The notes: generated from the letters alone by a model not told the origin. Counted from the stretch's first letter, positions 10,006 through 60,193 are shown. The stretch is DNA of 64,000 nt from Nitrospirales bacterium (GCA_963555755.3 OY820905.2:3584001-3648000); one strand, 5' to 3'. Numbers and translations are program-made.

Positions 10006-10410
10006 AATATCTAAAGCGCAAACTCCAACGCCAACCGTCCTGCGGCTTGGGTTTCATCCCCACTCATCGCGGTATAGTCCATGCCAAGCAGCAGGTGCGT
10101 ACGGTCATGTATCTCCAGGCGGAGGGACGCGCCAAGGCTGCCACCATAGACGCTGTCATCACTGGCTGAGGTAAAGCGAAAGTCACTGCCGGAGAGGGTG
10201 GCGTGGATGTCGTCGTCATAGGTGTGTCGGGCGAGTACGCCGGCCCGGAGTTCGAGATGGCTGGTGTCGAGGGTGTAGCGGGCGGCCAGTTGGAGACGGC
10301 TCTGCAGGGCGTGGACGGTGCGGTTGTCGATGCTGAGGTTGGAGCGGGTGGTGCCGGTTTCCCGGTAGGCGTCATACCAGGCGATGCTGTAGGCGAGGGT
10401 GGCTTGGGGG

Positions 10411-12988: not shown

Positions 12989-13879
12989 GGCTTGGGGGTG
13001 GAGTGTCAGTCCTTGATCGAGGGTGTAGGCGGTGGTGAGGCTGAGCGCGGGGCTGAGGAAGCCGCTGTCAAAATCGGTGCGGGCTATTTCTATGCCGGCG
13101 AGGTTGTCGATGACCCGGCGGTGGTTGTCATGTTGTTCATAGCCGCCGAGTAGCGAGGCGGTGAGGGCTAAGGGGCCGAGGTGAATCTGCGCATAGCCAC
13201 CGACAAAGAGGCTGTCGGTATCGGTGCTAATGGATTGCCGTTCGGTGTCGATGTCAGACTGGGCAGCCCCGCCAAAGACACCGAGACGGGTGTGTTGGAC
13301 GTTGGTGTCGTAGCCGCCCATGAGGCCGGCGTAGTCGTGGTCGTAGGCGAGGGCCTGGCCTTCGGCGCCTCGATGGCGGTGGGCGCCGAAGAGTTGGCCC
13401 CATGCTTGCGAGGGGCGCGGCTGAACCAGGAGGCCGGGCGTGAGTCGGATCGTGGCAAGTTGTATCTTGGCGGGGGCCGGTTGGGTCAGGCGGTGTTGGA
13501 TTTGTTCATGGAGGCCACCAGTGAAGGTCGCGAGGACGGCACTGTGAACGGATTGTCCTGTGGGGTCGACGAGGGTGGCGACGGTGCCGTTGTGTATCCC
13601 GGCAACGCCATTGAGGAGGTTGATGGTCTCGGCATTGTCCAAGGTCAGTGTGGCGGAGGGGTTGGCGCCGTAGATGTTGACGGTGTCGTTGCCACCAGCT
13701 AAATCTATACGGCCGATGATGTGCGAGCCGCGATAGAGATTGAGCGTTTCGGCACCGGTTCCCCCCAGGATAGCGGTGGTGGCGTTGCCGGTGGCTGAGA
13801 TGAGGCCGTGGTTGTAGATGGTGGTGGTGTTTCCGGCCCCGTCGGCAGAAATCCCCACCGCATCGGGGCCGGTGACGTT

Positions 13880-14510
13880 AATGCTGCCGCTGTTCGTTAT
13901 CGTGGCGTTGTCGCCTATTGACCGGATGCCGTGAGCACCCTCACCAATCGTCGAGATGGTCCCGCTGGTCGTTATCGTGGCGTTGTCGGCTTCTGACTGA
14001 ATGCCGCTAGCATTGTTACCCGTCGTCGAGATGGTCCCGCTGGTCGTTATCGTGGCGTTGACGCGTTCTGACTGGATGCCGCTAGCATTGTTACCCGTCG
14101 TCGAGATGGTCCCGCTGGTCGTTATTGTGGCGTTGTCGCCGAATGACTGGATGCCGCTAGCATTGAAACCCGTCGTCGAGATGGTCCCGCTGGTCGTTAT
14201 CGTGGCGTCGTCGCCTCCTGACTGGATGCCGTTAGCACCGTCACGCGTCGTCGAGATGGTCCCGCTGGTCGTTATCGTGGCGTCGTCGCCTTCTGACTGG
14301 ATGCCGCTAGCATTGGTACCCGCCGTGGAGATGGTCCCGCTGGTCGTTATCGTGGCGTTGTCGCGGACTGACTGGATGCCGTGAGCCCCGGTACCCGCCG
14401 TGGAGATGGTCCCGCTGGTCGTTATCGTGGCGTCGTCGCCGAGTGACTGGATGCCGTGAGCATTGCCACCCGTCGTCGAGATGGTCCCGCTGGTCGTTAT
14501 TGTGACGTTG
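13880..14510 (-). repeat. 75-bp (25-aa) tandem repeats in the autotransporter passenger domain, 8 copies plus 1 degenerate
   Basis: GAGATGGTCCCGCTGGTCGTTAT recurs every 75 bp from 13953 to 14478 (DNATITTSGTISTTGxNASGIQS). Confidence 0.95.
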
Positions 14511-15345
14511 TCGGCGGTTGACGCGATGCCGAAACCGCCTGCCACATTAAGCTGCCCCCCAGCCTCGATCACCCCGGTTTCATTGTCGTTGTCGAGCGTC
14601 TGCGTCGTGGTCTCCACCTGCCCCTCGCTAATCGTAAACGAATCTGCCTGGACACGGGCTGTAGCACCCCCTATCACGATTATCAGACAGACACTCAACG
14701 CGGCCTGTGTATATTTCATATTGGGACCTGGCCTCCACTATATCCATTTTATGGATGTTCATTGGACCTATGATGACAATCTACTCCATGTCAAATAAAT
14801 ATATATGAACCGAAATAATAAGGCAATCAATCATTGCTTATAACCATTTTTGCCACCACAATAGGTATTTTTACACTATGGTCGGTCTGCAGGAGTCGCT
14901 CATCGGGCTGAAACCAAAACGGTCCTTCTCAGCCCGCATCTTCATTGAAACTAGAAACGGCAGTTGGGCGCAAAAAAGACGTGGAAGCTATTGGCGTGCA
15001 TGGTGAAATACAAAAAGTCGTGGTCACCTTAGGTCTGTCATTTCGAGTGCAAGGAGAAATCTCTTGGCCCGAAAGAACGTGACCCGGGCGGGAATGGGGG
15101 AGAGTTCCTCGAAGGGTCGAAATGACAACGGACGACGTGTGATACGGGCGAAGCGTAATAGAGTTTAGCCTACCTCCACCAAAATTGAGATTGATCCGGA
15201 ATGTTCAAAAAGGCCGTCCAGTCCTGTCCTGAGCCATGTCGAAGGGAAGGCCGCAGGGCTTTTGGCGAGTGGAGTGTACACGGAGTACGTGAGCACGCCA
15301 AAAGCCCGACCTGCCTGCGCGAAGCCGCTTTCAGCCTTATATAAT

Positions 15346-15577
15346 ACTCTGGAGTTTTTGTGTTAGGGTTTTTCTTTTTATTCATTGTACCGGACTCCGG
15401 GAGCTTGCTGGGTCGAGGACCATTCCGGCCTGAGCCCTGATGAGGCTCATACGAAGACTGTCCCGCCCAGTCAAGGAACGGCGTGAGACGTTCCATAGGA
15501 AGTTGTCCCACTGAGGACCGATATAAGGCAAACGAGCCGTTCGCGCTTCTGGGAAGGGTCCAAGAAAGGAGAGACGG
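15346..15577 (+). ncRNA. Putative IS110 bridge RNA (boundaries approximate)
   Basis: Non-coding left end has two loops whose guides match the target (TTCCGGCCT/TACGAAG) and donor junction (CCATAGGAAGT/ATATAAG). Confidence 0.78.
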
Positions 15578-16801
15578 ATGCCACGGTATTACATGGGAGT
15601 GGATTGGGGCGATGAGCAGCATGGGGTCTGTGTGCGAGAGGAGGCGGGCTCCATTGTGTGGGAGGACCTGGTACCCCACACGCCGAAGGGTTTGCAGGAG
15701 TGGGGACGGCGTTTGGATACCTGGCGTGCTGCGGGGATCGAGCTGTGGGCGGCCATTGAGCGACCCGAGGGGCGGGTGGTGGAGTTCTTGTTGGATCATG
15801 GGGTGGTGGTGTATCCGATGAATCCGAAAGCGCTGGATCGGGCTCGGGATCGCTTCCGTATGAGTCCGTCGAACAGCGATGGCTTTGATGGGCGGGTGCT
15901 GGCCGAGGTGCTGCGAACCGATCATGCCCATCTCCGGCCGCTGCAGCCCAGTTCGGAGGCCGCGCAAGAATTGAAACTCCTCACCCGGGATCATAAGCGC
16001 TTGCAGCAACAACAAACCCGGGGCCTGAACCAACTCACGAGCACGCTGAAGGACTACTATCCCCGGGTGCTGGACCTGTTTGGCGACCTGACCACGCAGG
16101 TGGCCCTGGATTTTCTGCAAACCTATCCGACCCCGGCCGCGTTGACGACAGTGCGGCAGAGTCAGTGGCAGCGTTTTGCGCGTGCGCATCGGCTGGGGCC
16201 GGCGCGCACGGCGGAGTTGTGGGACGAGCTCAAGGCGCCCCAGATGCCCGTCCCCGCACATGTGGTGCGGACCAAGGCCCGGCTGATGGGCGTGCTGGTC
16301 GGCCAGGTTTTGCTCGCTCACCGAGCCGTGCGGGAGTATCACACGGAGATCGAACGTTTTTTCGCGACCCTCCCGGCGGCTGAGTGGATGCAGAGTCTGC
16401 CGGGAGGGAAAAGTGGGACCACGATTCCCAGTGTGTGGGCCGAACTGGGCGATGCTCCGGGCCGCTGGACCTCGTGGGCTCACCTGCAGGCGGAAGCGGG
16501 GACCGTGCCCGTCACGCGGCAGAGTGGCAAAAGTTGCGTGGTGCGGTTCCGCTTTGCGTGTAACAAGTCCCTGCGGCAGGCCATCTGGTGGGTGGCCTTT
16601 CAGTCGCTGACCCAGAGTGAGTGGGCCAAGAGTGACTATCAGCAGTGTCGGGCTCGCGGGCACCGGCATAATCAGGCGATGCGCGCCTTGGGGGCGAAAT
16701 GGCTGAAAATCATTTTTCGGATGTGGCAGCATCAGGTTCCCTATGATGAGCAATATCATGTAGCAAACATGACCAAGCAATACCTACGTGCAACTGCGTA
16801 A
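15578..16801 (+). CDS. IS110 DEDD recombinase/transposase
   Basis: GVDWG, AIE, SDGFD, and C-terminal RQSGKS catalytic serine motif. Confidence 0.95.
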   Translation: MPRYYMGVDWGDEQHGVCVREEAGSIVWEDLVPHTPKGLQEWGRRLDTWRAAGIELWAAIERPEGRVVEFLLDHGVVVYPMNPKALDRARDRFRMSPSNSDGFDGRVLAEVLRTDHAHLRPLQPSSEAAQELKLLTRDHKRLQQQQTRGLNQLTSTLKDYYPRVLDLFGDLTTQVALDFLQTYPTPAALTTVRQSQWQRFARAHRLGPARTAELWDELKAPQMPVPAHVVRTKARLMGVLVGQVLLAHRAVREYHTEIERFFATLPAAEWMQSLPGGKSGTTIPSVWAELGDAPGRWTSWAHLQAEAGTVPVTRQSGKSCVVRFRFACNKSLRQAIWWVAFQSLTQSEWAKSDYQQCRARGHRHNQAMRALGAKWLKIIFRMWQHQVPYDEQYHVANMTKQYLRATA

Positions 16802-25012: not shown

Positions 25013-25226
25013 GGGAATGTTGAAAAAAGCCGCCAGCGGCGTTCTCGCCCTTTTGCCGTGCTCACGTACTATGAGTACGCTCCGCGCGTCAAAATGGCTG
25101 CGGCCTTGCTGGATAGACCCTTCGGAAAGACTCAGGGCATGCTTTTTTGAACATTCCCTCCCCTTGACAATGCTTGGCTCATCCAGAGCTTTTATTGGCA
25201 ATTGACGCGAAATATTCAACAGCCCC
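25013..25226 (+). mobile_element. MITE family A, full length (other copies ~29392-29581, 40583-40698, 44272-44391, 52001-52121, 59614-59734, 63131-63320)
   Basis: TIRs GGGAATGTTGAA / TTCAACAGCCCC; 5-bp TSD ACTAT (AAATT for the 63131 copy). Confidence 0.88.
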
Positions 25227-25957
25227 ACTATTTCGCCTCGAAGCCATGCGATGGAGCTTCGAAAGTTCCAATGCAGGAGCCTTCGCTGTTCCCCTAGCGG
25301 GGGCCGTGCTGCCGCCTGAATGGGTGAGGGCCCGGCAGTCCTGCCGGAGTCGAAGGAGCATGGGGAAAAGGGGACATTCTGATTTTTTTGCAGGGGACCG
25401 AAACGCGGGCATTCTGAGGCGCTGTCGTGCGCGTGCTGCACCATCGCGGGGTGGGAATTTCCAACATTCGATTTGAGCGCGAAGAAAAGGGACATTCCTC
25501 AAAAAGCCTCGCGCCTCCGGGTGTGGGGCTTTTGTCCAAATGGTCAAACATGCAGGATAGCCCTCTCAACGAGAATTCGCTATAAACTGGTGTGAAGGGC
25601 GAACACTTAGGGTGCCAATGCCCTTATTCACTCTTTACGAACCTGTCCACAAAACCGGGGCTAGACCGGTCCACCTGGAAATATAGTAAAGAGTGATGAG
25701 TCATGATAAAATCGTGATCAGTAATGCGTGAAGCGTGATGCCTAAAATGGGGAAACGTCTTTTTGTCTACGGATCATGCATGACGGTTTTCGGATTATGA
25801 CTTCTTCCCCATCGACCCATTACTTTTCTCCAATGCGCCTCACGTATTACGAGTTACGTCTTGTGAACGACGAACCTCGAACGACATCTTTGGTTCCGGG
25901 TCGTCCGGGTTAGGGCCTGTGAGTGAAGGTAGTGTCTGATCCTATGTATGCTGTGGT

Positions 25958-30222: not shown

Positions 30223-32205
30223 GTACGCCGGGCATGATCGAGTAATTGGAGGTGCCAGTGCAATGACATTGTAGTCCTCTGCGGGGCCTGCCGGAGGCAA
30301 CCGCGAGTCGCAGGGCAACTGCGTCGCCGTGAGGCGAGGTGGGATGGAAGCCTGAGACGAACCGCAGCACCGAACGAACAGTCAAGCGCCTATAGGCACG
30401 TCGGTCCGGGTGAGTGTGCGCCATAACACGACGCCCAATATTCGGTCGGGACCGACGGGTAAAGGCGACGGAGGCGGCGGGACATGACTCGATCTTATCC
30501 CGGGAGATCTCCATGTGTCCCCAGATGGGATAGGGCTGGAGGAGGAAACGACGACAGCCCGATGCGCGTGGAGAAGTCGGATCATTCCATCGTAGCGATG
30601 AAACCCTCGAAAGAGGATGGAGCCAAGGGAGTGACAGAGATGAAAAGAGCCGAAAGACGACAACTGAACTTCGCGTTCGCAGACCAGCCCGAAGAGGGAC
30701 GCGGACAGGCCAAGGCCCCGGGCGTCCCCGAGGTCAAAGCCTGGCTGCGGCAGATAGCGAAGAGCAAGGAGTCGAACCAATCGGCCGCCAGAGTAGATTC
30801 GCCGAAGGCGGGTTTACTCGAACAGGTAGCGTCCTCGCCGAATCTGGCGAAGGCGCTGTTGAACGTCGTAGGCAACAACGGTGCGGCAGGTGTGGACGGA
30901 AAGAGCGTGAAAGAAGTGCTTCAGAACGTTCGGGCCCTTCTCCCCAAGCTCCAACATGCGCTGCTGAAGGAGACCTATCGCCCCGGTGACATCCGGCGGG
31001 TTTGGTTACCTAAGCCCGGAGGAGGAGAGCGGGGGTTGGGGATACCCACCGTGATAGATCGATGGGTGCAAGAAGCGACCCGGCATGTGCTGGAACCGAT
31101 GTTCGAGCTCCATTTCCACCCCAGTAGTCATGGATTCCGTCCGAAACGAGGCGCACAGACCGCCATCGCGGAAGCAAAACGGCATATCGAAGAAGGGCGC
31201 GAAGTGGTTGTAGCTTGGGACCTATCCACATTCTTCGATCGCGTAAACCATCAGAGGCTTCTGAACCGTTTGGCTCAGAAAGCCGAAGATGGACGCGTCT
31301 TGAAACTGATACACCGGAGGCTCAAAGCGAAAGTGGTCATGCCCGACGGAGCGGTCATCACGGTCAAAGAAGGCACACCTCAAGGCGGCCCACTAAGCCC
31401 GTTGCTATCCAGCGGCGTACTCGACGAACTGGATTGGGAACTGGAACGACGTGGGCTGAGCTGTGTGCGCTACGCCGACGAGGCGAACATCTACGTGCAT
31501 AGCGAACGTGCTGGAGACCGGGTGATGGACTCAACTCGCCGCTTCATCGAAAAGCGTTTGCGTGTGAAGGTGAACGAAGAGAAGAGCTCGGTAACCAGCC
31601 CCGATAAAGTTCATTTCCTGGGGTTCTGCTTTCGCAGGAGTCGGGAAGGCACGCTGGAGGTGCATCTATCGGAGCGAAGCAACCGGCGCATAAGCGTCCG
31701 TATCCGGGAACTGACCCCGCGCAAGTGGGGCCAATCACTGGAGCGGTGCCTCTCCGAATTGAACACCTACCTGCGGGGTTGGGAAGCCTACTTCGGCGGG
31801 ATAGGCACTCGTGGTGGAGCCTATCGCTTCCATACTTTTGATGGGCATATACGCAGGCGACTGCGAGCGCTCATCATTCGTCAGAAGCGCCGACCCCGAC
31901 ACCTGCATCGACATCTCAAAGCGCGTGGCGTTCGCGGGGAAGTAGCGGCGCGCGCCGCGTTCGCGCAACGCGGCACAAGAGCTGTACTTGGGCTCTGCAT
32001 CAGGCGTATCCGAATGCATGGTTCGAGAAAAGGGTTTATACCCTGTGGAGCGAATGGCAACGCAAACACCCCGAAGTGTTCACGGCCTCGGACGGACAAC
32101 TATTGCTGTTCGCCTAAGAGATGGCGCTCTGAGGAGCCGGATGTGTGGTCCACAAGTCCGGTTCTGTGAGAGCTGGGGGAGGGCAACCTCCCCTGGCTAC
32201 TCGAC
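30223..32205 (+). mobile_element. Group II intron (class C-like), probably decayed
   Basis: 5' GTACGCCGGGCATG; short domain V GAGCCGGATG..GTCCGGTTC; domain VI GGGGAGGGCAACCTCCCC; 3' CTCGAC; inserted just after a hairpin. Confidence 0.85.
30640..32117 (+). pseudogene. Group II intron reverse transcriptase/maturase with YADE active site and frameshifted C-terminus
   Basis: GAAGVDG, RGLGIP, HGFRP, GTPQGGPLSPLL, RYADE; plausible C-terminus (HQAYPNAWF..QLLLFA*) lies in another frame from ~31970. Confidence 0.75.
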
Positions 32206-32291
32206 AAGAATGGTTTTGGTCACTTTTGCCGAAACAAAAGTGACTCTTCGGCGGGGGCGAAACCCCGCAACCCACAAAAAAGCTAAAGCGG

Positions 32292-32585
32292 TTAGGCTAC
32301 GGAAAGGTCTAACCGCTGCACGTTTTTTAAATTGACCTTCTTCTTGGCCTGCCACAAATTGTAATTGTCTTGCATGGCCAACCAACTCTCTGGGGAACGG
32401 CCCAAAGTTTTGGAGATTCGTAGTGCCATCTCTGGAGTCATGTGGCTTTCTCCGTTGAGTAGACGTCCAAAGGTGGAGGGAGAAACTTTCAGCTTTTCGG
32501 CAACGTTTCGAACGCTGATGTTGAAGGGTTTGATATAAATTTCCCTGATGAATTCCCCAGGATGTGGCGGGTTATGCATGCTCAT
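32292..32585 (-). CDS. higA: HigA-family antitoxin
   Basis: MHNPPHPGE..TPEMALR..SPESWLAMQ. Confidence 0.93.
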   Translation of the reverse strand: MSMHNPPHPGEFIREIYIKPFNISVRNVAEKLKVSPSTFGRLLNGESHMTPEMALRISKTLGRSPESWLAMQDNYNLWQAKKKVNLKNVQRLDLSVA

Positions 32586-32863
32586 GAGTGGTAATCCTCA
32601 TAATTGATTACGTAAGCGTTTCCTTCCTCAAATCGGAAGGTCATTCTCCAGTTTCCACTGACGTCAATGGCCCAGTGATCTTTCTTTTTCCCCTTCAAGG
32701 GGTGAAGTCTCAATCCTGGGAGATCCATGTCCTCGATATTTTGGGCTGTCTCTAATGCTGTCAATTGTAAGCGTAATTTCTTTTTGTGCCCCGGTTGAAT
32801 CCCAGCCACGCTCCCTGTCTCATAGAAATTCTGGAGTCCTTTGTGGCTAAAAGATTTAATCAC
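32582..32863 (-). CDS. higB: HigB/RelE-family toxin
   Basis: MIKSFSHKGL..LHPLKG..VSGNWRMTFRF..EDYH. Confidence 0.93.
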   Translation of the reverse strand: MIKSFSHKGLQNFYETGSVAGIQPGHKKKLRLQLTALETAQNIEDMDLPGLRLHPLKGKKKDHWAIDVSGNWRMTFRFEEGNAYVINYEDYHS

Positions 32864-32917
32864 CAGATAACCATAGCATATTGCGCACCACGCAACAATA
32901 TTAATGTTCGCCTCTCC

Positions 32918-33159
32918 CGCGTTGGGCGCGGCGGAGCCGCCGTACTGAATCGACTTGATCTGCCCGCCTTCGGATGCGGCGGAGCCGGAGCCCCGAATCG
33001 ACTTCTTGGCGAGGGCTGTTTGAGCGGAGCGAGTTCCCTCGCCCTCTTATTCGGGGCTCAGGCGGAGGGACCCCCTTGGGGCCGCATACGGGCGGAAATG
33101 GTTTTGGGCACTTTTGCCGAAACAAAAGTGCCTCGTCGCGCGGGGGGCAAGACCCCGCA
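32918..33159 (+). repeat. Structured repeat H (truncated plus full copy); other copies 30160-30222/32206-32270, 53143-53256/55835-55923, 57242-57381, 58004-58118, 58593-58808
   Basis: GCCTTGGGCGCGGCGGAG..AATGGTTTTGGG(T/C)(C/A)CTTTTGCCGAAACAAAAG..GGGGCGAAACCCCGCAA; no TIRs. Confidence 0.85.
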
Positions 33160-33318
33160 TAACTAATTTTCACTTAAAAGAAAAAGGTGGCGTGGGGATG
33201 GGGGAGATTTCTCTCAAGGGTCGAAATGACAAACAGGTGGGGGTTGATAAGACAACGAGTATTTTTTGGTTTGTTGCTTCCTCAGGTACTGGTTGAGGGA
33301 TTGCAGTTGGAACCTCAA

Positions 33319-50983: not shown

Positions 50984-52000
50984 ATGCTCCTCTCTGACTT
51001 CGATGTGCCCTTCGATGAAACGCTCATCGCCGAATATCCCGCGTCTCCCCGAGATCATGCCCGCCTGTTAGTTGTCCCGAAGGATGATGGCCCCTTTCGC
51101 CATCATCAAGTGCGAGATCTTCCTTCCCTGCTCAAACCAGGCGATGTGCTGGTGCTCAATGACACCAAAGTCATTCCCGCACGGCTGCGAGGTATCAAGT
51201 TGCCGGGAGGGGGCAAGGTGGAATTGTTGCTGGTCCGACCAGTGGAAGATACGGTTTGGGAGGTGTTGCTCAAAGGGCATGTGAAAGAAGGCCAGGTCCT
51301 GCAACTGTCGAAAGAAGCCACTGCCATTGTGAAGGAGCGTGGGGAACGGACGGTCGTACAATTCAACATGCCAGGTTCAATGCAGGATCTGCTTCAACAA
51401 TCAGGAGAAATTCCTCTTCCGCCTTATATTAAACGAAAGGTAGAACAAGCCGATGCCCAAACCTACCAAACCGTCTATGCGCGCACAGAAGGTGCGGTGG
51501 CTGCGCCAACAGCCGGCCTGCATTTCACATCGGAACTCCTAGAGAGTTTAAAGAAGCAAGACATTCAGATGGTGAGCATCACCCTTCATGTCGGACCAGG
51601 AACCTTCAAACCGGTGACGGTAGAAAAAATCGAAGAACATCGAATGGATGCCGAGTGGTTCGAGATTTCCGAACAATCAGCCGAGTCTATCAATACCGCC
51701 AAAGCCGAAGGCCGACGCATCGTCGCAGTAGGAACCACCGCCGTCAGAACGTTAGAAGCCTCGGCAGTTCACGAAGGCCTTGTTCGAGCAGGAAGCGAAG
51801 AAACCCGCCTATTCATAACCCCCGGCTTCGAGTTTAAAGTTGTCGATGCCATGCTCACCAACTTCCACTTCCCAAGAACCACCCTCATCATGCTAGTCTC
51901 AGCCCTAGCCGGGAAAGAGCGCATCCGAGTCGCCTACGAAGAAGCCATCAAAGAACAATACCGTTTTTACAGCTATGGCGACGCTATGCTGATCCAATAG
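50984..52000 (+). CDS. queA: S-adenosylmethionine:tRNA ribosyltransferase-isomerase
   Basis: PLPPYI, AAPTAGLHF, LHVGPGTF, YRFYSYGDAM. Confidence 0.97.
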   Translation: MLLSDFDVPFDETLIAEYPASPRDHARLLVVPKDDGPFRHHQVRDLPSLLKPGDVLVLNDTKVIPARLRGIKLPGGGKVELLLVRPVEDTVWEVLLKGHVKEGQVLQLSKEATAIVKERGERTVVQFNMPGSMQDLLQQSGEIPLPPYIKRKVEQADAQTYQTVYARTEGAVAAPTAGLHFTSELLESLKKQDIQMVSITLHVGPGTFKPVTVEKIEEHRMDAEWFEISEQSAESINTAKAEGRRIVAVGTTAVRTLEASAVHEGLVRAGSEETRLFITPGFEFKVVDAMLTNFHFPRTTLIMLVSALAGKERIRVAYEEAIKEQYRFYSYGDAMLIQ

Positions 52001-52237
52001 AGGCCCTGTCCCAAAATCCCGCCAGCAGCGTTCTCGGCCTGCTGTGGTGCTCACGTACTGGAGTACGCTCCGCTCCCCAACAGCCCTGCGGCCTTGCTGG
52101 GCCCAATTTCTGGGCGGTCCTCGTCATCTTCCCAACTTTTGTTACGCCTTTTGGTCATACATATCGCAGTTTTCATATTTTTGGAAATTTTACATAATTC
52201 CTCTAGGCTGCGATTAGTCGATCTGGGGGTTTAGCAG

Positions 52238-53113
52238 ATGAAACTGATAAAGCCAAAAATTGAAAGCACTATTCATAGTCCGGATTTTAGGGAATGGTGT
52301 CCATCTTCCTTCGAGTCTTTTCTTGTCGAATTGAACCATATCGTTGATTCATGTGAGGGTGATGATCCTGCTCCCTTGTTTAGAGGTCAAGCAAATAAAG
52401 GATGGCATCTCGACTCGACATTTGTCAGAAATTGTATTCAGCACCTTTTTAATATTCCTGACTACCGCACAGTAAAAAAAGAAGTAAGGCAATCAGTTCC
52501 CTTTCATAAAGCTATGGCATCTTTATTTTTGTTAAAATATGGAACGCTTTGGAACCCAAGTCCGGAATCTTTTGAACGAGAAGAAGTTGATGGTATCGAC
52601 CCATGGTTTGAGTTGTTAAAGAACTTGCAGCAGTACCCAGAAAATGACCGTTTTATAAATGGTACTTTTCTGGTGGATTGGAGTTGGTCCAAAGATATTG
52701 CCTTATACTTTGCAATTTTCCATGGGAAGGGACAGGAGAGGGAGGTGAGTTCTGGAGATGGATCCTTATGGATATATGATTCCGTTGCAACAGGAAACAC
52801 TCTTCAGCAAAAAAAGCTTGGTGAAATACTTTCAATGATGAGGAGTGAGGAATTTTTGAACGGTAGCAAGACTTTCCCACTTTTATTTTATCCACCTAGC
52901 CAAACCTTGCAGCCTCGCCAGAAAAATCAAGCCCCTTTTTATATTGCCCAAATGGACTTTCGGTATGATTTGGCGGATCATTGGGCCTCTTATGAGGAGC
53001 AGAATAAAAAAAGAGTATTTATCAAATTGGTCATAGATGAAATTTTAAAGGAGGAAGCTGCTAAATATCTCGAGTCGAATAATATTAGTGAAAAATTTGT
53101 TTACCCTGCATGA
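52238..53113 (+). CDS. FRG domain protein (AT-rich)
   Basis: LFRGQ..QQY..LVDWS..IALYFA. Confidence 0.85.
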   Translation: MKLIKPKIESTIHSPDFREWCPSSFESFLVELNHIVDSCEGDDPAPLFRGQANKGWHLDSTFVRNCIQHLFNIPDYRTVKKEVRQSVPFHKAMASLFLLKYGTLWNPSPESFEREEVDGIDPWFELLKNLQQYPENDRFINGTFLVDWSWSKDIALYFAIFHGKGQEREVSSGDGSLWIYDSVATGNTLQQKKLGEILSMMRSEEFLNGSKTFPLLFYPPSQTLQPRQKNQAPFYIAQMDFRYDLADHWASYEEQNKKRVFIKLVIDEILKEEAAKYLESNNISEKFVYPA

Positions 53114-53256
53114 TCGATGGGAAAAGCTTTGTCCCCTCTCAACGCCTCGGGCGCGGCGGAGCCGCAGCCCCGAATCGACTTTTTGGCGAAGGTTGTTTGA
53201 GCAGAGCGAGTTCCTGAGCCATCTTATTCGGGGTGGAGGCGGAGGGACCCCCATGG

Positions 53257-55834
53257 CAATGGCATTCGTTTAAGGAATGGGCGGCATTCGTTTAAGGATT
53301 TGGCTCATTCGTTTAAGAAACGGATTCCATGTGCTTAAGGGACTTTCAGATAGAGGCCATCGACCCTGTGGGGTTCTTGGACTGGCTGTTCTTTTTGGGT
53401 GGATGCCACGTGGACTCCGGTTTCATGGATGTTCGAGGATAGGATCGGCCCGGCCTCACCCGTTGGTAGTGACTCACAATGGACTCGAAGGCCCGTTGGA
53501 CGGCGGTCTGCATCCGAGCATGGAGCACGAGCAGATCTTCGAAGCTTCGCGCAAACACGTGAAGGCAATGTTTGAAGTTGGTCTTGAATGTCCGCCTCGC
53601 CCCGGTGCCGGTTCCAACTATGGACGATCCGGGAGGGGCCATGGGCTCAGCTGCGGGGGCTTCGGGATTGAGTGCGTGGTCCGCCCGATTGGCGAACAGC
53701 CGGTTCATGGTGATCAGGACGAAATGCGCGAAGAGCTCTTGTTTGACGCCGCGCTCGGTTTTGGCATGAAACTCCTCGATGAGGAACAGGCGCTTGCTCA
53801 CCTTGTAGAGTTCCTCGATGCCCCAACGGGCATGGTAGAGATCCATGAACTCCTGGAGCGGATACCGCTGCTGGGGGCCGACCAGGGTGGTGCCCAAGCA
53901 AAATCGGCTGCCGGCCATCTCATATTTCAGAAGCCGCAGGCTCAACGGGATGATGGCGAGATCAGGATAGACCGCCCGGATGTCTCGTTGCGTGCGTGCG
54001 GCGGGGAAGAGGGTGACCGTGGTGTCGGTGTCCGGGCCGGCAAAAAACTCTTGAATCTCCTTGAACCCGCTGTCTTGGAGACGAAACACGGCGTGGATCC
54101 CGGCGGTCCAGTGCTGATGCAGCAGGACGTAGGAGAAATAGCCTCGATCGTACACCACGACATCGTTGGGCTTCAGCACAGCCAGGTGCCGCAGGGCGCA
54201 CCGTCGCTCGTTGCCATGCGCGACGAGGTCGAAATCCCAGGGCACTTGCGACGTGAGGTGGTAGAGGCAACTCAGCAACCCTTGAGGATAGTGTGCATTG
54301 TCAGAGGGCAAGGGGTAGCCACACGCCCGCAACGCGCGGGGCAGTGTAAGCTTGGAGCCATCGACGGCAAACACCCGATGGCCCAACCAGGTGTCGTTGG
54401 AGTCGTGTGGGGCATAGGCGTCCAGAATGTTCCGGTTGACGGACTGGAAAATGGCTTCGTCCAGTTTGCGACGTGCGACACAAAAGGACGCCGGCGCGAT
54501 GCTGTGGGGTTGCGGGAGCGCGAGCGCCAGGTTGTCGCAACTGTCCCACAAGTCATCAATGGTGGTGCCGTAACTTTGGGAGTTGGTTGACGACACCAAC
54601 CGAAAGATCAACAGCATCAGGATCAGGGAATCGATCACCCGTTTCCGGACGCGCCACTGGTCATCGTACTGGGCCGCCACGTCGTGGAGGATGTGGACCA
54701 CCTGTTTCCACCAGGCGACAAACCCTTCCCCGACGGACCGTGTGCGACTGGCTCGCACGTCGTTGCGATAGCGTGTCTTCACCGTGACGGCTCGATGCCC
54801 GGCAGTCAGGCACGCGCGCCAGTCGGGTTGGAGCGGATAGAGAAAAATCTCTTTTGTCGTGGGTGGACGGTCCGACGTTGAGCCAAACCGCCCGCGCCCC
54901 TCGGTGTAGCCCACGAAGTGCCAATTGGCCGCTCGATAACAGGTCCCGGCAAACCGGGAGGGATCGATGAACGTTTCAATCAGCACCGGGCGATAACCGT
55001 AGACTTCAACCCAGTCGTCCCCGATCTGCTTGGTGGCCCGCGCCAGCACATGGCTGGCGAGATTCGGCACGTCAATCCACGGAAAGATCAAAAACCGATC
55101 ATTGCGCAACACCAATGGCAGGAGCTTCCTCCGGTGCGTCACGTCCCAGCCAATCCAGTGATCTCTGGGGGCCAGCGCCCAGGCGGCCGAGGCCGAAAAC
55201 AGCAGACAGCCCAGCGGGTACGGCTGGGCGGCCGATCTCACCAGATAGCCCAGCTGGGCCCCGATCGGGTGTTTATAGCCCAAATAATGATAGGTCTGCA
55301 GGTAGACTTTCCAGCTCTCGCGTTCCTCTTTCGAGACCACCCGGTGCAGGGTAATTGGGGCCACGGCGGCGAGGGTGTCGGTGAGTGGCTCGGTGGGGGG
55401 CGGCTCGTGAAACGCAGGGATGGGGTGTCCCGGCGCGCGCTTGTGGCGCGTGGCCGGCAGAGTCACGATCCCGTGCGCTTCCAGCTCGGTCAGCAAGGTC
55501 AAACAGGAATGAATCTTGTTGTGGCCCGTCGGCGTGGTCCAGCTGAGATGCTCACAGACGGTGAGGGCCAATTCCTTCCGACTCAGGTGGGGGAACAGCT
55601 GGACGGTTTCTTGGACCTGCGCCAACTGCTTGCGGGTGAACCGCCGCCCGCTAAAGGTCGTCTTGGGTAAGGTGTCCACAGTCTTCATCGAGGATAGTCT
55701 CTCAGAAGACGGAAAAGAAGTCAAGCGAAAAAGGACACCAGGGCGACTTCGGTTCAGAAGCCCTGATCAATCAACCAGTTCCGCTGATAACAGAGAAGGC
55801 AGATTGTTCGTTCGAACCAAACCGAATGCCATTG
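53257..55834 (-). mobile_element. IS4-family insertion sequence, copy 2, inserted in repeat H
   Basis: Same IRs as copy 1; 10-bp TSD ACCCCCATGG. Confidence 0.93.
53346..55724 (-). CDS. DUF4338-IS4 transposase fusion
   Basis: Differs from copy 1 at KAYLQ/KVYLQ, the only difference noticed. Confidence 0.9.
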   Translation of the reverse strand: MTSFPSSERLSSMKTVDTLPKTTFSGRRFTRKQLAQVQETVQLFPHLSRKELALTVCEHLSWTTPTGHNKIHSCLTLLTELEAHGIVTLPATRHKRAPGHPIPAFHEPPPTEPLTDTLAAVAPITLHRVVSKEERESWKVYLQTYHYLGYKHPIGAQLGYLVRSAAQPYPLGCLLFSASAAWALAPRDHWIGWDVTHRRKLLPLVLRNDRFLIFPWIDVPNLASHVLARATKQIGDDWVEVYGYRPVLIETFIDPSRFAGTCYRAANWHFVGYTEGRGRFGSTSDRPPTTKEIFLYPLQPDWRACLTAGHRAVTVKTRYRNDVRASRTRSVGEGFVAWWKQVVHILHDVAAQYDDQWRVRKRVIDSLILMLLIFRLVSSTNSQSYGTTIDDLWDSCDNLALALPQPHSIAPASFCVARRKLDEAIFQSVNRNILDAYAPHDSNDTWLGHRVFAVDGSKLTLPRALRACGYPLPSDNAHYPQGLLSCLYHLTSQVPWDFDLVAHGNERRCALRHLAVLKPNDVVVYDRGYFSYVLLHQHWTAGIHAVFRLQDSGFKEIQEFFAGPDTDTTVTLFPAARTQRDIRAVYPDLAIIPLSLRLLKYEMAGSRFCLGTTLVGPQQRYPLQEFMDLYHARWGIEELYKVSKRLFLIEEFHAKTERGVKQELFAHFVLITMNRLFANRADHALNPEAPAAEPMAPPGSSIVGTGTGARRTFKTNFKHCLHVFARSFEDLLVLHARMQTAVQRAFESIVSHYQRVRPGRSYPRTSMKPESTWHPPKKNSQSKNPTGSMASI

Positions 55835-55960
55835 ACCCCCATGGGGCCGCGCACGGGCAAAAATGGTTTTGGGTCCTTTTGCCGAAACAAAAGGATCTCG
55901 TCGGCGGGGGCGAAACCCCGCAAAATAATCATTCATAATTTTTTAAAGGAGCCCCACCCC

Positions 55961-56336
55961 ATGAGTCTAAAAGTTTCCGAAGTCGCCTTTGTTGGGTATC
56001 CCGTATCGGAGTATGAAGCGGGCCAAAGATTTTTATGAACGCGTTCTTGGCCTAAAGGTAGGGGAGATTGATGAAGAAATTCCTGTAATGCCCGGAAAGT
56101 ATTGGGTGGAATATGAGGTCGGATCCCAAACATTTGCGATCTCGAATGCGTGGGAACCCTCAGGCCAAAGCGGTCCCTCAATTGCATTCGAAGTCGAAGA
56201 CTTTGAAGAAGCAATGAATCACCTCAAAAAAGAAAGCGTAAAAATTGTGGCTGAATGCATAGAAACCCCAGTCTGCCGTATAGCCCTCATAGAAGACCCC
56301 GACGGCAACGGCATCACCATTCACAAAAGACATTAA
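55961..56336 (+). pseudogene. VOC/glyoxalase protein with a +1 frameshift
   Basis: Paralog of 58157-58531; extra G at ~56011 (TCGGAGTATG vs TCGGATATG). Confidence 0.8.
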
Positions 56337-56343
56337 AAGCTAA

Positions 56344-56394
56344 AGTGCGAGGCGGATGAATAAGAGGGAAAGGGCAATTTATGAAGAAGACTAA
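56344..56394 (+). pseudogene. BrnT-like toxin C-terminal remnant
   Basis: SARRMNKRERAIYEED* overlapping the start of the next gene. Confidence 0.6.
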
Positions 56395-56626
56395 ACCCGA
56401 TGAACTTCGCTCGGAATATTCTCGAGAAGATCTTGGAAAAGGCGTACGGGGGAAATACTTAAATGCCTATCGAGCGGGACATAACCTGGTTCGGTTGAAT
56501 CCAGAAGTTGCAGCAGCCTTTCCTTCTGACGAAGCCGTGAATGAGGCGTTGAGTTCACTCATCAAAGTCGCCCAGCACGCTGGCCTAACAAAGCGCTCAA
56601 ATGGACGCAGCAAATCAAGTCGGTAA
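56381..56626 (+). CDS. BrnA-like antitoxin
   Basis: ELRSEY..GVRGKY..LNPEVAAAFP..AVNEAL. Confidence 0.7.
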   Translation: MKKTKPDELRSEYSREDLGKGVRGKYLNAYRAGHNLVRLNPEVAAAFPSDEAVNEALSSLIKVAQHAGLTKRSNGRSKSSR

Positions 56627-56635
56627 ACAGGTCCC

Positions 56636-57229
56636 ATGAAAAAAGTTTCGCTTTCGAGAAATGATTTATTGGGTTTTGCTGCTGATGACCTTGGATTCTA
56701 CGGTCTTGACGTTAGCCGAATCAGTACAGTCTTTATTGCGCAAAATTTTCAGCTTCAAGCCAATCGAACCATAGACACCATGTCTTTAATGGATGAGGTC
56801 AAATACCTTGAAGGTCTGAGAAACAAGACTTCAACGGAAAAGGAGAAAGCTTTTAAAAAGCTGCCTCTGAAAGGACTTTTCAAGAAGCACTTTATGAGCG
56901 CGGGATTTATTGTGAAAAATATTGGTGCTCATTTCGGTTTTGAATGGGGCGGCAACATTAATCTTGACAATCTGATTGAAGAAGTCTTTTCAAATAACAA
57001 ATCGGGGTACGTTAATGATGCTTTTGTTGGCCAACTTACATATGGCATGGTAACTCAAGCCATTGAGAAGAGAGCCCAAAAAGGATTGACAGGAGAATGG
57101 ATTGTCTTTGGGAAGTTTAAGGGCAAGAACTATTATCTCACTATTGCTGCACATGATGAGGGCGATGAGAACATTTTTAATCGCGTGTGCGATGCGTACG
57201 ATTTCGACTTTCCCTTCCTACGAAACTAA
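56636..57229 (+). CDS. Hypothetical protein (AT-rich)
   Basis: 197-aa ORF, LTGEWIVF..NYYLTIAAH. Confidence 0.75.
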   Translation: MKKVSLSRNDLLGFAADDLGFYGLDVSRISTVFIAQNFQLQANRTIDTMSLMDEVKYLEGLRNKTSTEKEKAFKKLPLKGLFKKHFMSAGFIVKNIGAHFGFEWGGNINLDNLIEEVFSNNKSGYVNDAFVGQLTYGMVTQAIEKRAQKGLTGEWIVFGKFKGKNYYLTIAAHDEGDENIFNRVCDAYDFDFPFLRN

Positions 57230-57463
57230 TCTACCTATCCCCGCCTTGGGCGCGGCGGAGGCGGAGGAACCCGTAGGGCCGCGCACGGGCGAAAATGGTT
57301 TTGGGTCCTTTTGCCGAAACAAAAGAGCCTGTCCCGAGTCTGTCGAGAGGAACCTCGTCGCGCGGGGGCGAAACCCCGCAAACGTTATTTGTGCAGGATT
57401 GTGCGTATCTGTTTACAATGTCATCGAATTTGAGAAATACAGATTTTGTGAGGAGGGATCGTT

Positions 57464-57670
57464 ATGAAATTTACCGTGACGCTCGATCGTGATGAAGACG
57501 GAATGTGGGTAGTGGAATGCCCTTCGATACCTGGTTGCGTGAGCCAGGGGAAGAATGAAGAAGAGGCCTTGGAAAATATCAAAGAAGCCATCCAACTTTG
57601 CCTTGAAGTGCGTGCAGAGCAGGGACTCCCTTTGACAGTAGAGACAAGGGAAGTTGAGGTGACTGCCTGA
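57464..57670 (+). CDS. hicB: HicB-family antitoxin
   Basis: CPSIPGCVSQG..EEALENIKEAI. Confidence 0.9.
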   Translation: MKFTVTLDRDEDGMWVVECPSIPGCVSQGKNEEEALENIKEAIQLCLEVRAEQGLPLTVETREVEVTA

Positions 57671-57901
57671 ATGGCGACCCTACCCACGTTAAGTGGTCGC
57701 GAAATCGTTAAGGTATTCGAGAAGCTTGGCTGGAGAGTTGCCCGTCAGCGTGGTAGCCATATTATCCTGGTCAAGGACGGTCAGGTTGCCACACTTTCTA
57801 TTCCTGATCATAAGGAAGTGGCGAAAGGAACCCTGCGGAGTTTGCTCCGTATGGCTCGACTCACAGCTCAGGATTTCGGGGATGTTCTTCGGGTTCTTTA
57901 A
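57671..57901 (+). CDS. hicA: HicA-family toxin
   Basis: RQRGSH..IPDH..GTLRSLLR. Confidence 0.9.
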   Translation: MATLPTLSGREIVKVFEKLGWRVARQRGSHIILVKDGQVATLSIPDHKEVAKGTLRSLLRMARLTAQDFGDVLRVL

Positions 57902-58156
57902 AGGTTTATTTGTTGAAATAATAAATAGAGGAATTTTGAAGGAATTGGGTTCAGACACAATTAATGGACCTTAGTGAGTCTAGCCAGCCTTTGAATTTTT
58001 TTACGCCTTGGGCGCGGCGGAGGCGGAGGGACCCGGAGGGCCGCGCACGGGCGGAAATGGTTTTGGGTCCTTTTGCCGAAACAAAAGGACCTCGTCGCGC
58101 GGGGACGAAACCCCGCAATATATTCATTCATAAATTTTTAAAAGGAGTTCTACCCC

Positions 58157-58531
58157 ATGAGTCTAAAAGTTTCTGAAGTCGCATTTGTTGGATATCCCGT
58201 ATCGGATATGAAGCGTGCAAAAGATTTTTATGAACGGATTCTCGGTCTTACAGTAGGAGAATATGATTACGAGATTCCCGAAATGCCAGGAAAATACTGG
58301 GTGGAGTATGAAATTGGATCGCAAACGTTTGCCATTTCGAACGCCTGGGAACCCTCTGGTCAAAGCGGTCCATCCATTGCTTTTGAAGTCGAAGACTTTG
58401 AGGAGGCAATGACTCACCTCAAAAACGAAGGCGTAAAAATTGTGACGGAGTGTATCGAAACCCACGTTTGCCGAATAGGGCTCATTGAAGATCCCGATGG
58501 CAACGGAATCACCATTCACAAGAAGCACTAA
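58157..58531 (+). CDS. VOC/glyoxalase-family protein
   Basis: VSDMKRAKDFYE, IAFEVEDF, DPDGN. Confidence 0.9.
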   Translation: MSLKVSEVAFVGYPVSDMKRAKDFYERILGLTVGEYDYEIPEMPGKYWVEYEIGSQTFAISNAWEPSGQSGPSIAFEVEDFEEAMTHLKNEGVKIVTECIETHVCRIGLIEDPDGNGITIHKKH

Positions 58532-58888
58532 GTTTGGATAGTGCTTTCCTTATATTTCAAAAAGATTTAGGGAATCAGTCCTGATTGTTCGAGCCTTGGG
58601 CGCGGCGGAGCCGCAGCACCGAATCGGCCTCTCTGGGGAGCACTGTCTGAGTCCTTCGACAAGGCTCAGGACAGGCTCCGCGAGTTGCGCAGCCATCTTA
58701 TTCGGGGCGGGGGCGGAGGGACCCGGAGGGCCGCGCACGGGCGGAAATGGTTTTGGGTCCTTTTGCCGAAACAAAAGTGCCTCGTCGCGCGGGGACGAAA
58801 CCCCGCAAGATAATATTCTAGAAAACCAATTAGGTTAGGAGAGGAAAAGGATTCGGTATGTCGGACAAACTGCCAAGAACCTGAAAAT

Positions 58889-59599
58889 CTACAGATACTC
58901 TTGCCGAATTTCCACATCGGAGACCATACGCTTGGCCGCTTGAAAGGCTTGCAACGCACGTTGTTTCTTTTGGAACAAAATTTGAAGACGAATCCGTTTG
59001 TGGATACGGTCTTTTTCCACCTCATCCTCCATGCCAGCCGTTTGACGCGTGGCTAACTCCTCCGCTTCCTGTACTTCCGATGGATTGAGCGTAGCGACAT
59101 CTTGGACAATTATTTGCGCATGTTGCGTCTGGAGATCTCTGGTCAGTTGTTGTTCAAAGTCTTTTGGTGAAAACCGATTCGCGGAAAGGCGCCGATGGTA
59201 AAGTCCCGCATCAAACGTTCCGTCTGTTTGAAATTCTTTCCTCTTCCTAATTTCATAGCGGAGGGTATTGGGCGAAATGCCAATGTCCCATTCGTCTGCC
59301 GTCACCAGCCATACTTTTTTGTCGACCATACTTTGGATGACCTGTTGTTTTAATCCTTTCTCGTCCACCAATGCCTGTTTCAGCTCATCCTTATAAAATC
59401 GATACATACGAGTATAGGTCCGACGGAATTCATCAAGACTGACTGTATAGGGCCCGACAATGGCTACGGCATTGGGTTGCTGTGAGCTTTCAAACCCAAA
59501 CCAGCCCATCCCAATCATAAAGGTAACGGCAATGAGGAGGATAATGATCTTGAGCAGCCAGGGGTATTTTGTTGAGCCTTCGCGAATGAGTTTAATCAT
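58889..59599 (-). CDS. SurA N-terminal domain (PpiD-like) protein
   Basis: MIKLIRE..TM..FQTDGTFD..Y; RBS AGGAGA. Confidence 0.8.
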   Translation of the reverse strand: MIKLIREGSTKYPWLLKIIILLIAVTFMIGMGWFGFESSQQPNAVAIVGPYTVSLDEFRRTYTRMYRFYKDELKQALVDEKGLKQQVIQSMVDKKVWLVTADEWDIGISPNTLRYEIRKRKEFQTDGTFDAGLYHRRLSANRFSPKDFEQQLTRDLQTQHAQIIVQDVATLNPSEVQEAEELATRQTAGMEDEVEKDRIHKRIRLQILFQKKQRALQAFQAAKRMVSDVEIRQEYL

Positions 59600-60193
59600 G
59601 CCGTTCTCCTGTTGGGGCTGTTGCAAAAGGCTGCCAGCGGCGTTCTCGGGGCTTTGTCGTCCTCACGTACTCCATGTACGCTGCGGGCGCCAAATCCCCT
59701 GCGGCCTTGCTGGACAGCCTTTTTCAAAAGCCCCATTTCCATCAACCATCGGAGGATGGTGAAAAGGGGGTGACGAATGAGGAAAGTTTTTGAATTATTC
59801 AACGGTTCATTTGTTAAAAGCCTGTTTCGGTGAAGGCATTGTACGCAGGGGGTCGCCTTGAAGCAAGCGGCTTTATATAGGTAAGCTATAAGTAGCTGGT
59901 GGGGCTTTTATGGAGCGGGTGCCACAGGTGTTCAAGGCCGGAAAGCCAAGGGGAAGAATGGACCACAAGGCAGGTGGTTAATCTCGGAGGCGGCGTTTGA
60001 GCATATTCATGCCAAAATTGGAATCGACTGTACTGCTGCGAGAGATCTCAAACCACGCAAACCCCATAATGACTCCGAGTACGGTGCCTAATAGAACGTA
60101 GTTCAACAACATGGCAATTCCTTCACACACGTATTCATATTTCGCAATAATTCCTGTCTACAGATTCTGTCGGAATTTTATGCACAAACTTTA

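Follow-up and report, generated by a model that had tools for sequence, protein, structure and literature searches.

Can small genes accumulate in cassette-like order around a repeat that is not an integron site? The question is raised by positions 52,238 to 58,888 of a 64,000-nucleotide stretch from a Nitrospirales bacterium (GCA_963555755.3 OY820905.2:3584001-3648000; the whole stretch is called the window below), where small genes downstream of queA are separated by copies of a structured repeat, here named H. A first-pass annotation of the window had read the region as an integron-like cassette array and had suggested that H is the recombination or capture site of an undescribed cassette-accretion system acting in trans. 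We compared the genome under study (G000, with a main contig, C1, and a 14-kb second contig, C2) with relatives belonging to other species (G002 to G006, several of them fragmented metagenome-assembled genomes, MAGs), and located H with an nhmmer profile built on its full form, merging overlapping matches into elements. H is not an integron site; it is likely a landing pad and recombination substrate where small accessory genes gather. The reading that we favour, with moderate confidence, is that H is the core of a modular repeat resembling transposable elements of the miniature inverted-repeat type (MITEs) and repetitive extragenic palindromes (REP), and that the queA array is an accretion hot spot in which H provides a landing pad and recombination homology, with no dedicated cassette recombinase.

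The six copies of H in the window (at 32205, 33093, 55858, 57290, 58052 and 58742) are direct and all on the + strand, as first annotated. Alignment of copies with their flanks revealed that this 66–110-nt repeat, previously taken for a self-contained unit, is the 3' core (~100 nt) of a modular element of 230–270 nt. The full form runs from a variable left arm and a left terminus (CGC(G/C)TT(C)GGGCGCGGCGGAG) through module 1, a long hairpin that is optional and missing from short forms, a short hairpin (P0), a helix (P3) that encloses hairpin P1 (loop CCGAAA), and hairpin P2 (loop RCGAAA) to an AT-rich tail (ATAATAATTC...). An extra small hairpin module (CTGGATTCCCGAT...ATGTCGGGAATGAC) often trails this tail, for example at L033 1735-1770, as a further nested shell. 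Among 39 distinct copies, 95.1% of cells are paired, compared with 43–52% when the partners are slid, both-sided changes occur at 8 pairs, and covariation reaches 0.204 versus 0.111 in shuffled controls, a value attained by 0 of 500 shuffles; the loops and the single-stranded stretch are invariant. Fold energies are only mildly lower than in shuffles, with z of -2.2 and -2.9 for the two strands. P1 and P2, read on the + strand in 75 copies, contain 52 G:T and 8 A:C cells, and P3 is rich in G:U-type pairs. This wobble-pair skew hints at folding of one strand, with few independent events behind it because the copies share ancestry and hybrid stem variants exist. H matched no Rfam family at E ≤ 1 and is not terminator-like, no T run following either of its hairpins, and a blastn comparison of module 1 with E. 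coli genomes at E ≤ 10, made to check its likeness to enterobacterial repetitive intergenic consensus (ERIC) elements, was negative. No description of the repeat appeared in the passages returned by full-text searches of the published literature.

Throughout G000, 142 profile matches merged into 111 elements of 100–290 nt, 78 of them complete. With 61 on the + strand and 50 on the − strand, the uniform orientation noted at first is a local feature, and the suggested bias between replichores (delimited by GC skew; origin ~2.70 Mb, terminus ~0.55 Mb) is absent (33:25 versus 26:25, p=0.57). The copies are mutually 75–90% alike. H occurs in 19 of the 24 other genomes of the family, its core being 82–89% identical across genera while its flanks are unalignable, and, weakly, in three further families of the order (1/6, 1/5 and 1/5 genomes). 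Its right end points toward a gene 3' end in 72 of the 111 elements (59 of 98 when genes ≥200 nt are counted, 12 of them ≤16 nt from the stop codon), and the intergenic sites that it occupies are co-directional (72), convergent (27) or divergent (12). Neighbouring copies less than 5 kb apart are arranged (-,+) in 21 pairs, (+,+) in 12, (-,-) in 10 and (+,-) in 2, a marked preference for head-to-head order (21 versus 2, binomial p=6.6e-5).

On C1, 72 H elements fall within 27 clusters, bordered by pheT, dapB, der, accA, maf and other core genes. According to Pfam annotation of 125 + 24 open reading frames (ORFs), the intervals between copies mostly contain one toxin–antitoxin (TA) pair or orphan genes, in either orientation relative to H. 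The TA types include HigBA, HicBA, BrnTA, ParDE, Phd/ParE, VapBC-type PIN pairs, HipBA and a RelA_SpoT toxin pair, and further cargo comprises DUF4160/DUF2442, DUF433/DUF5615 and many orphans. The proposed enrichment of TA genes near H was confirmed: 15 of the 64 PIN, ParE and HigB genes are ≤1 kb from H, compared with an expected 4.6% (5-fold, p=1.7e-7), and 49 do not lie near it. A composite [H-]-spacer-[H+] of 750 nt recurs at least four times at 80–88% identity. Save for VOC, insertion sequences (IS) and MITEs, the cargo between copies is single-copy, so there has been no recent duplication of H together with cargo. The RelA_SpoT-domain ORF (242 aa) lies with an 80-aa partner between H copies beside brnTA (C1:2802571-2803547; L032 3573-4547), and looks like a small alarmone-synthetase toxin pair. 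Separately, C2:2170-3499 repeats the H-vapBC-H segment at 4141-4142 kb of C1 exactly (880 nt at 100%), so C2 may reflect a collapse or an alternative path in the assembly. In the DNA contigs of X2, joints that link H copies were discarded as evidence, being assembly paths through repeats.

Islands between the same core genes differ in cargo from species to species and are empty in the H-poor G004. At the queA locus of G004, queA and the chaperone gene lie 155 bp apart with no H. The corresponding interval contains an HNH-like gene, H, hicBA, a degenerate H and a sulfatase gene in G003, and a 263-aa gene, H, VOC, a HicB-like gene, hicB and H in G002, while in G005 an intact brnT-brnA pair directly follows queA and G006 has yet another sequence. 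The slot beside queA thus holds another gene in G002, G003, G005 and G006, and hicB-hicA is also found in G002 and G003. The second H copy of the array has its orthologue in the H that precedes hicBA in G003 (80.5% over 555 nt, the same insert included), and the similarity between G000 and G003 starts exactly at the left end of this H; the fourth copy is conserved in G005 and, degenerate, in G003. The block specific to G000 (FRG, H, VOC pseudogene) ends inside brnT, not at H. The G005 homology begins at 56344, about 15 C-terminal brnT codons are left at ~56345-56392, and in G005 an intact 90-aa BrnT-like ORF precedes the orthologue of the 81-aa BrnA-like ORF. The earlier identification of a BrnT remnant followed by BrnA is thereby supported, and the 81-aa ORF itself has no Pfam match at 1e-3.

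At the der locus, G004 has no island and an inverted H pair encloses differing cargo of 77 nt in G002, about 1 kb in G003 and 2.1 kb in G000. The extra cargo of G000 and G006 is bordered by a second copy of H together with ~200 nt from the 3' end of der, pointing to recombination that used a core gene as its anchor. Stem variants of the orthologous H copies at der switch against the species order, and gene conversion would therefore fit. The PTPS locus measures 57 nt in G004, and in G002, G003 and G000 an inverted H pair there encloses cargo that varies; G004 is empty at three loci with converging core genes where the others have inverted H pairs with differing cargo. A trypsin-like gene lies within a 2069-nt [H-]-gene-[H+] unit in G000, at a site where the core flanks (92–95% identical) are 38 nt apart in G005, and this indel ends ~10–45 nt from the outer ends of H. 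Other indels between species comprise cargo with one H only. Breakpoints expected to fall in H thus lie partly at its edges (the higBA cassette and the whole [H-]-gene-[H+] indel), and partly outside it, inside brnT, inside the duplicated der 3' end and 60–75 nt beyond H. As a separate observation, the gene on the left side of the trypsin-like unit adjoins maf in G002 and G004, but in G000 265 kb separate the two (L033 2.82 Mb, L035 3.09 Mb), with H copies at both present G000 junctions.

The higBA pair of the window is 94% identical in G000 and G002 (contig C82), compared with 77–82% for core DNA, and in both genomes it lies between two H copies on the + strand in unrelated flanks, the high identity ending at the left end of H. 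Among HigB relatives in metagenomes, H was present at 1 of 50 loci, that of a 96% relative on a 1.9-kb contig.

An IS, a 98-nt MITE and group II introns also insert into H, each at a fixed position of its own. The 2.58-kb IS has 11 full copies on C1, of which 6 abut parts of H and 4 are clean splits at profile position ~140/160. The MITE, a repeat of 97–99 nt, is inserted at 148/149 in 6 H elements, and a 654–660-nt element (5 copies, 89–96% alike) at 184 in 3 clean cases; further H copies are truncated at 183/184, and the full intron of the window ends at 180. The IS, which combines a DruA-like (Druantia) N-terminal domain with DDE_Tnp_1, occurs in the window at 53257-55838 and 10409-12988, its copies being 99.4–100% identical. 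A second group II intron signal (RF02005) lies at 25219-25359.

Taken as an accretion hot spot, the array could have arisen as follows. H, solo or as a head-to-head pair, would settle just 3' of stop codons with its P2/AT-rich end toward the gene, and incoming DNA would thereafter land only between H copies, so that cargo would come to lie between inward-facing left ends. Species would exchange DNA by homologous recombination, either in the core flanks or in H itself, with illegitimate joins in addition, and some [H-]-cargo-[H+] units may move or be lost as one piece, like mobile insertion cassettes. Several observations weigh against this account. The array in the window is all direct (+,+,+,+), which a head-to-head model does not foresee, and one cassette per interval together with a higBA identity that stops at the left edge of H appears better ordered than expected of a passive hot spot. 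The whole [H-]-trypsin-like-[H+] indel is a single case. No target duplication beyond shuffled controls was detected in 54 copies, no clear terminal inverted repeat within a single H (inverted termini exist only at a higher level, as inverted H pairs), and no cognate transposase among the IntI, Y1 and Y2 families. The divergence among copies implies little recent movement of H, each between-genome difference may sum several events because the genomes compared come from other species and include several fragmented MAGs, and genes beyond the window were called with a crude caller of our own. Of the original cassette-accretion proposal, cassette-like units genome-wide and species-specific islands hold, whereas H as the recombination site does not fit the several breakpoints outside it. 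The orientation of H is random relative to the replichore, and H often abuts core genes; half of what was to refute the original proposal is thereby borne out, while the cassette units and the TA enrichment hold.

A possible but rather unlikely alternative is that H is a host-kept repeat of the REP, bacterial interspersed mosaic element (BIME) or ERIC type, for example a 3'-end RNA stabiliser, an insulator or a nucleoid-protein site, that is immobile now, the TA genes just sharing permissive gene-end spots. The age of the copies, a core conserved across genera in unalignable flanks, invariant loops and single-stranded stretch with compensatory stems, the preference for gene 3' ends and for convergent over divergent sites, and the persistence of H in genomes without any tested transposase are all consistent with such a role. 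A cis-acting RNA would, however, need a set orientation to its neighbours, and the gene upstream of H is on the same strand in 54 cases and on the opposite strand in 57. Nor does H resemble a terminator; the whole [H-]-cargo-[H+] indel and the recurrent 750-nt composite imply movement as units, and H-free members of the family do well.

It is unlikely that genes are captured at inverted H pairs by a cassette system that is family-wide and needs no integrase, in which cargo would pass between the inward-facing left ends by means of a putative enzyme reading two CGAAA-loop hairpins on one folded strand. More doubtful again is the related proposal that H itself is the recombination site of an attC-independent cassette system, whose putative trans-acting enzyme would recognise the two CGAAA-loop hairpins and swap cargo at the left edge of H. 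The single TA pair per H–H interval at many loci argues for this proposal, as do the higBA cassette in unrelated flanks and the G000/G003 similarity at queA, both bounded by the left end of H. The queA-proximal slot differs in five genomes and the distal hicBA and VOC are shared, as at attI, and the bias of wobble pairs to one strand suggests a single strand that folds. A further point in its favour is that the group II introns inserting in H also target attC sites and terminators. However, the left-end core is variable (GTTRRRY at 37 of 84 left ends, CTT-type at 27, other at 20), breakpoints lie outside H in three events, most toxin genes are not near H, the orientation of the cargo is independent of that of H, and the empty sites of G004 have no H to take a first cassette. 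There is also no candidate enzyme among IntI, Y1 and Y2. Of 25 family genomes, 3 have IntI (one of these lacks H) and 7 have Y2_Tnp (IS91), neither co-occurring with H; Y1_Tnp (HUH) is present in 18 and was not found in the H-rich G003, G009, G011 and G019 (91–100% complete). The predicted trans-acting recombinase therefore finds no backing in co-occurrence, which likewise speaks against REP-associated tyrosine transposases (RAYT, Y1), IntI and IS91 as mobilisers of H. No parent element with H-like ends was found, neither the 1.3-kb IS91-like units, which lack H, nor the 2.58-kb IS. The Y2 transposase genes of G000 occur at 15 places (for example C1:497380-498054) in sharp-ended 1.3-kb units, and the family is found in 0 of 14 control genomes.

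That we are dealing with an ordinary array of integron cassettes, or with a cluster of attC sites lacking integron-integrases (CALIN), served by the integrase of G000 has next to no probability: an integrase above the cut-off is present and the cargo types are typical of integrons, but the true integron sites are canonical, attC-type motif pairs number 8 in the genome and 0 in the window (pattern scan), there is no H in the integron region (C1 221850-410656), and IntI and H do not co-occur. The integrase (C1:318997-319857; 405 bits versus a curated cut-off of 265) lies 3.3 Mb from the window, and the sites next to it read YCTAACAA...GTCGTTAGNC. Our attC search combined direct reading with a motif pattern, a scan for complementary arms having been dropped because it was blind even to the true integron. 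H lacks the attC frame (RYYYAAC...GTTRRRY around a 55–150-nt imperfect palindrome); the original remark that it has no attC ends is correct in that RYYYAAC is missing and H is not an attC, but incomplete in that GTTRRRY does occur, at the 5' end, which is wrong for attC. A profile search bore out the absence of an integron integrase from the 64-kb window. Co-oriented arrays with the site at ORF 3' ends are confined to the window; genome-wide, cargo faces both ways and pairs are mostly head-to-head.

The region C1:318997-336000 (L044) is a true chromosomal integron with intI on the same strand as the cassettes; it also contains two C-terminal fragments of intI (325317 and 332481) and a perfect inverted duplication of 1.9 kb (L044 11469-13373 / 14453-16357). 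At C1:4139870-4141123 (L040), an attC-like pair (4140799) and 81% similarity to the integron region are found inside an [H-]...[H+] unit, probably as a stray integron cassette within an H island.

Compared with known systems, H shares with attC sites and CALINs a structured repeat between co-oriented small genes, TA and orphan cargo that varies between relatives, use as a target by group II introns and a hint of single-strand pairing. It differs in lacking the RYYYAAC...GTTRRRY frame, in being twice as long and present on both strands, in abutting core genes chromosome-wide, in having no link to IntI and in breakpoints that are not confined to the site. Like REP/BIME, ERIC/intergenic repeat unit (IRU), BOX and Correia elements, it has tens to hundreds of intergenic, non-coding hairpin copies, forms modular mosaics, is biased to gene 3' ends and is a target of IS; unlike them, it has no RAYT link, spans 230–270 nt with three to four nested hairpin modules, and shows strong head-to-head pairing and a tight association with TA pairs. 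It resembles MITEs in being short, non-coding and dispersed in many copies, but has no terminal inverted repeat, target-site duplication or parent element. Three mobile elements at fixed positions of H (~140/160, 148/149 and 184) recall the landing pads (terminators, attC, REP) of group IIC introns and IS110/IS1111, although H is no terminator and the IS here is a DDE element with a DruA-like N-terminal domain, not IS110. Mobile insertion cassettes (MICs) and Tn3-derived inverted-repeat miniature elements (TIMEs; PMC4133298) similarly carry passenger genes without a transposase between inverted repeats, and one filled/empty polymorphism was seen here, other indels including a single H; H differs from them in having no parent IS with H ends and no target duplication, and in its many direct arrays and solo copies.

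The features of the two H loci of the window are listed in Table 1. The gene order described for the queA island was upheld by Pfam for VOC, HicB/HicA and HigA/HigB, but FRG is weak and the 2.58-kb IS that splits the first H had been omitted. The cargo is AT-rich, as first stated (38.8–46.5% GC versus 50.9% for the genome). H, spacer and VOC were duplicated as a unit, the pseudogene copy being 81–83% identical to 58130-58531, including the spacer after H. VOC homologues in 6 other Nitrospirales MAGs had no H within 2.5 kb. In one metatranscriptome (contigs at low depth), a 323-nt contig reaches from the 3' end of VOC into H, and there are pieces that end within H; assembled contigs cannot show transcript starts, ends or strand. 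A 291-aa ORF between H copies at L035 was considered as kin of the FRG ORF and proved unrelated. Elsewhere in the window, a 75-nt unit forms nine tandem copies at 13731-14630.

Table 1. Features of the queA island and the higBA locus, in window coordinates.
Feature	Position	Strand	Evidence
queA, left-edge core gene	50984..52000	+	338-aa ORF; orthologues 78–93% identical in 5/6 genus relatives
Small repeat of another family (D11/D12)	52013..52109		Repeat search; common to G006 at same place
291-aa ORF, weak FRG, island slot 1	52238..53113	+	Pfam FRG 24.1 bits (cut-off 25); GC 38.8%
H copy 1, full form, left half (module-1 hairpin), severed from core by IS	53142..53255	+	nhmmer profile 5-140
2.58-kb IS in P0 hairpin of H; 792-aa DruA-like + DDE_Tnp_1 transposase	53257..55838	-	Pfam
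H copy 1 core (P0 remnant, P3/P1, P2, AT-rich tail)	55838..55940	+	nhmmer profile 160-263
VOC/glyoxalase pseudogene, frameshift after ATG at 55962	55962..56336	+	Pfam Glyoxalase on 55989-56336
brnT remnant (last ~15 codons), then 81-aa BrnA-like ORF (56381-56626)	56345..56626	+	Comparison with G005
197-aa hypothetical ORF	56636..57229	+	ORF call; no Pfam family
H copy 2, short form without module-1 hairpin, 28-nt insert in P1	57252..57395	+	nhmmer profile
hicB-hicA TA pair	57464..57901	+	Pfam HicB_lk_antitox, HicA_toxin
H copy 3, short form	58013..58137	+	Repeat search, nhmmer profile
VOC/glyoxalase, 124 aa	58157..58531	+	Pfam Glyoxalase 52.3 bits
H copy 4, full form; right end 59 nt from stop of converging core gene	58589..58830	+	nhmmer 3-268
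SurA-N-like chaperone gene, right-edge core gene	58889..59626	-	Pfam SurA_N_3
Full-length group II intron, 3' end abuts 5'-truncated H	30230..32205 (5' end approximate)	+	Rfam RF02001 30323-30494, RF00029 32132-32205
H, intron-truncated 5' at profile position 180	32205..32272	+	nhmmer profile
higB-higA pair, antisense to both flanking H	32292..32863	-	Pfam HigB-like_toxin, HTH_3
H, full form, module 1 partly duplicated	32915..33182	+	nhmmer profile

Cassette-like arrays of TA and orphan genes can thus arise without integron machinery, around a structured repeat common to a family related to nitrite oxidisers. The use of fixed points in H by IS, MITE and group II introns neatly exemplifies the nesting of mobile elements in a safe site. 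Should H merely mark hot spots, it would be a useful marker for accessory micro-islands and assembly breaks; if cargo does enter at H, the family would have a second, unrelated route to integron-like stockpiling of genes.

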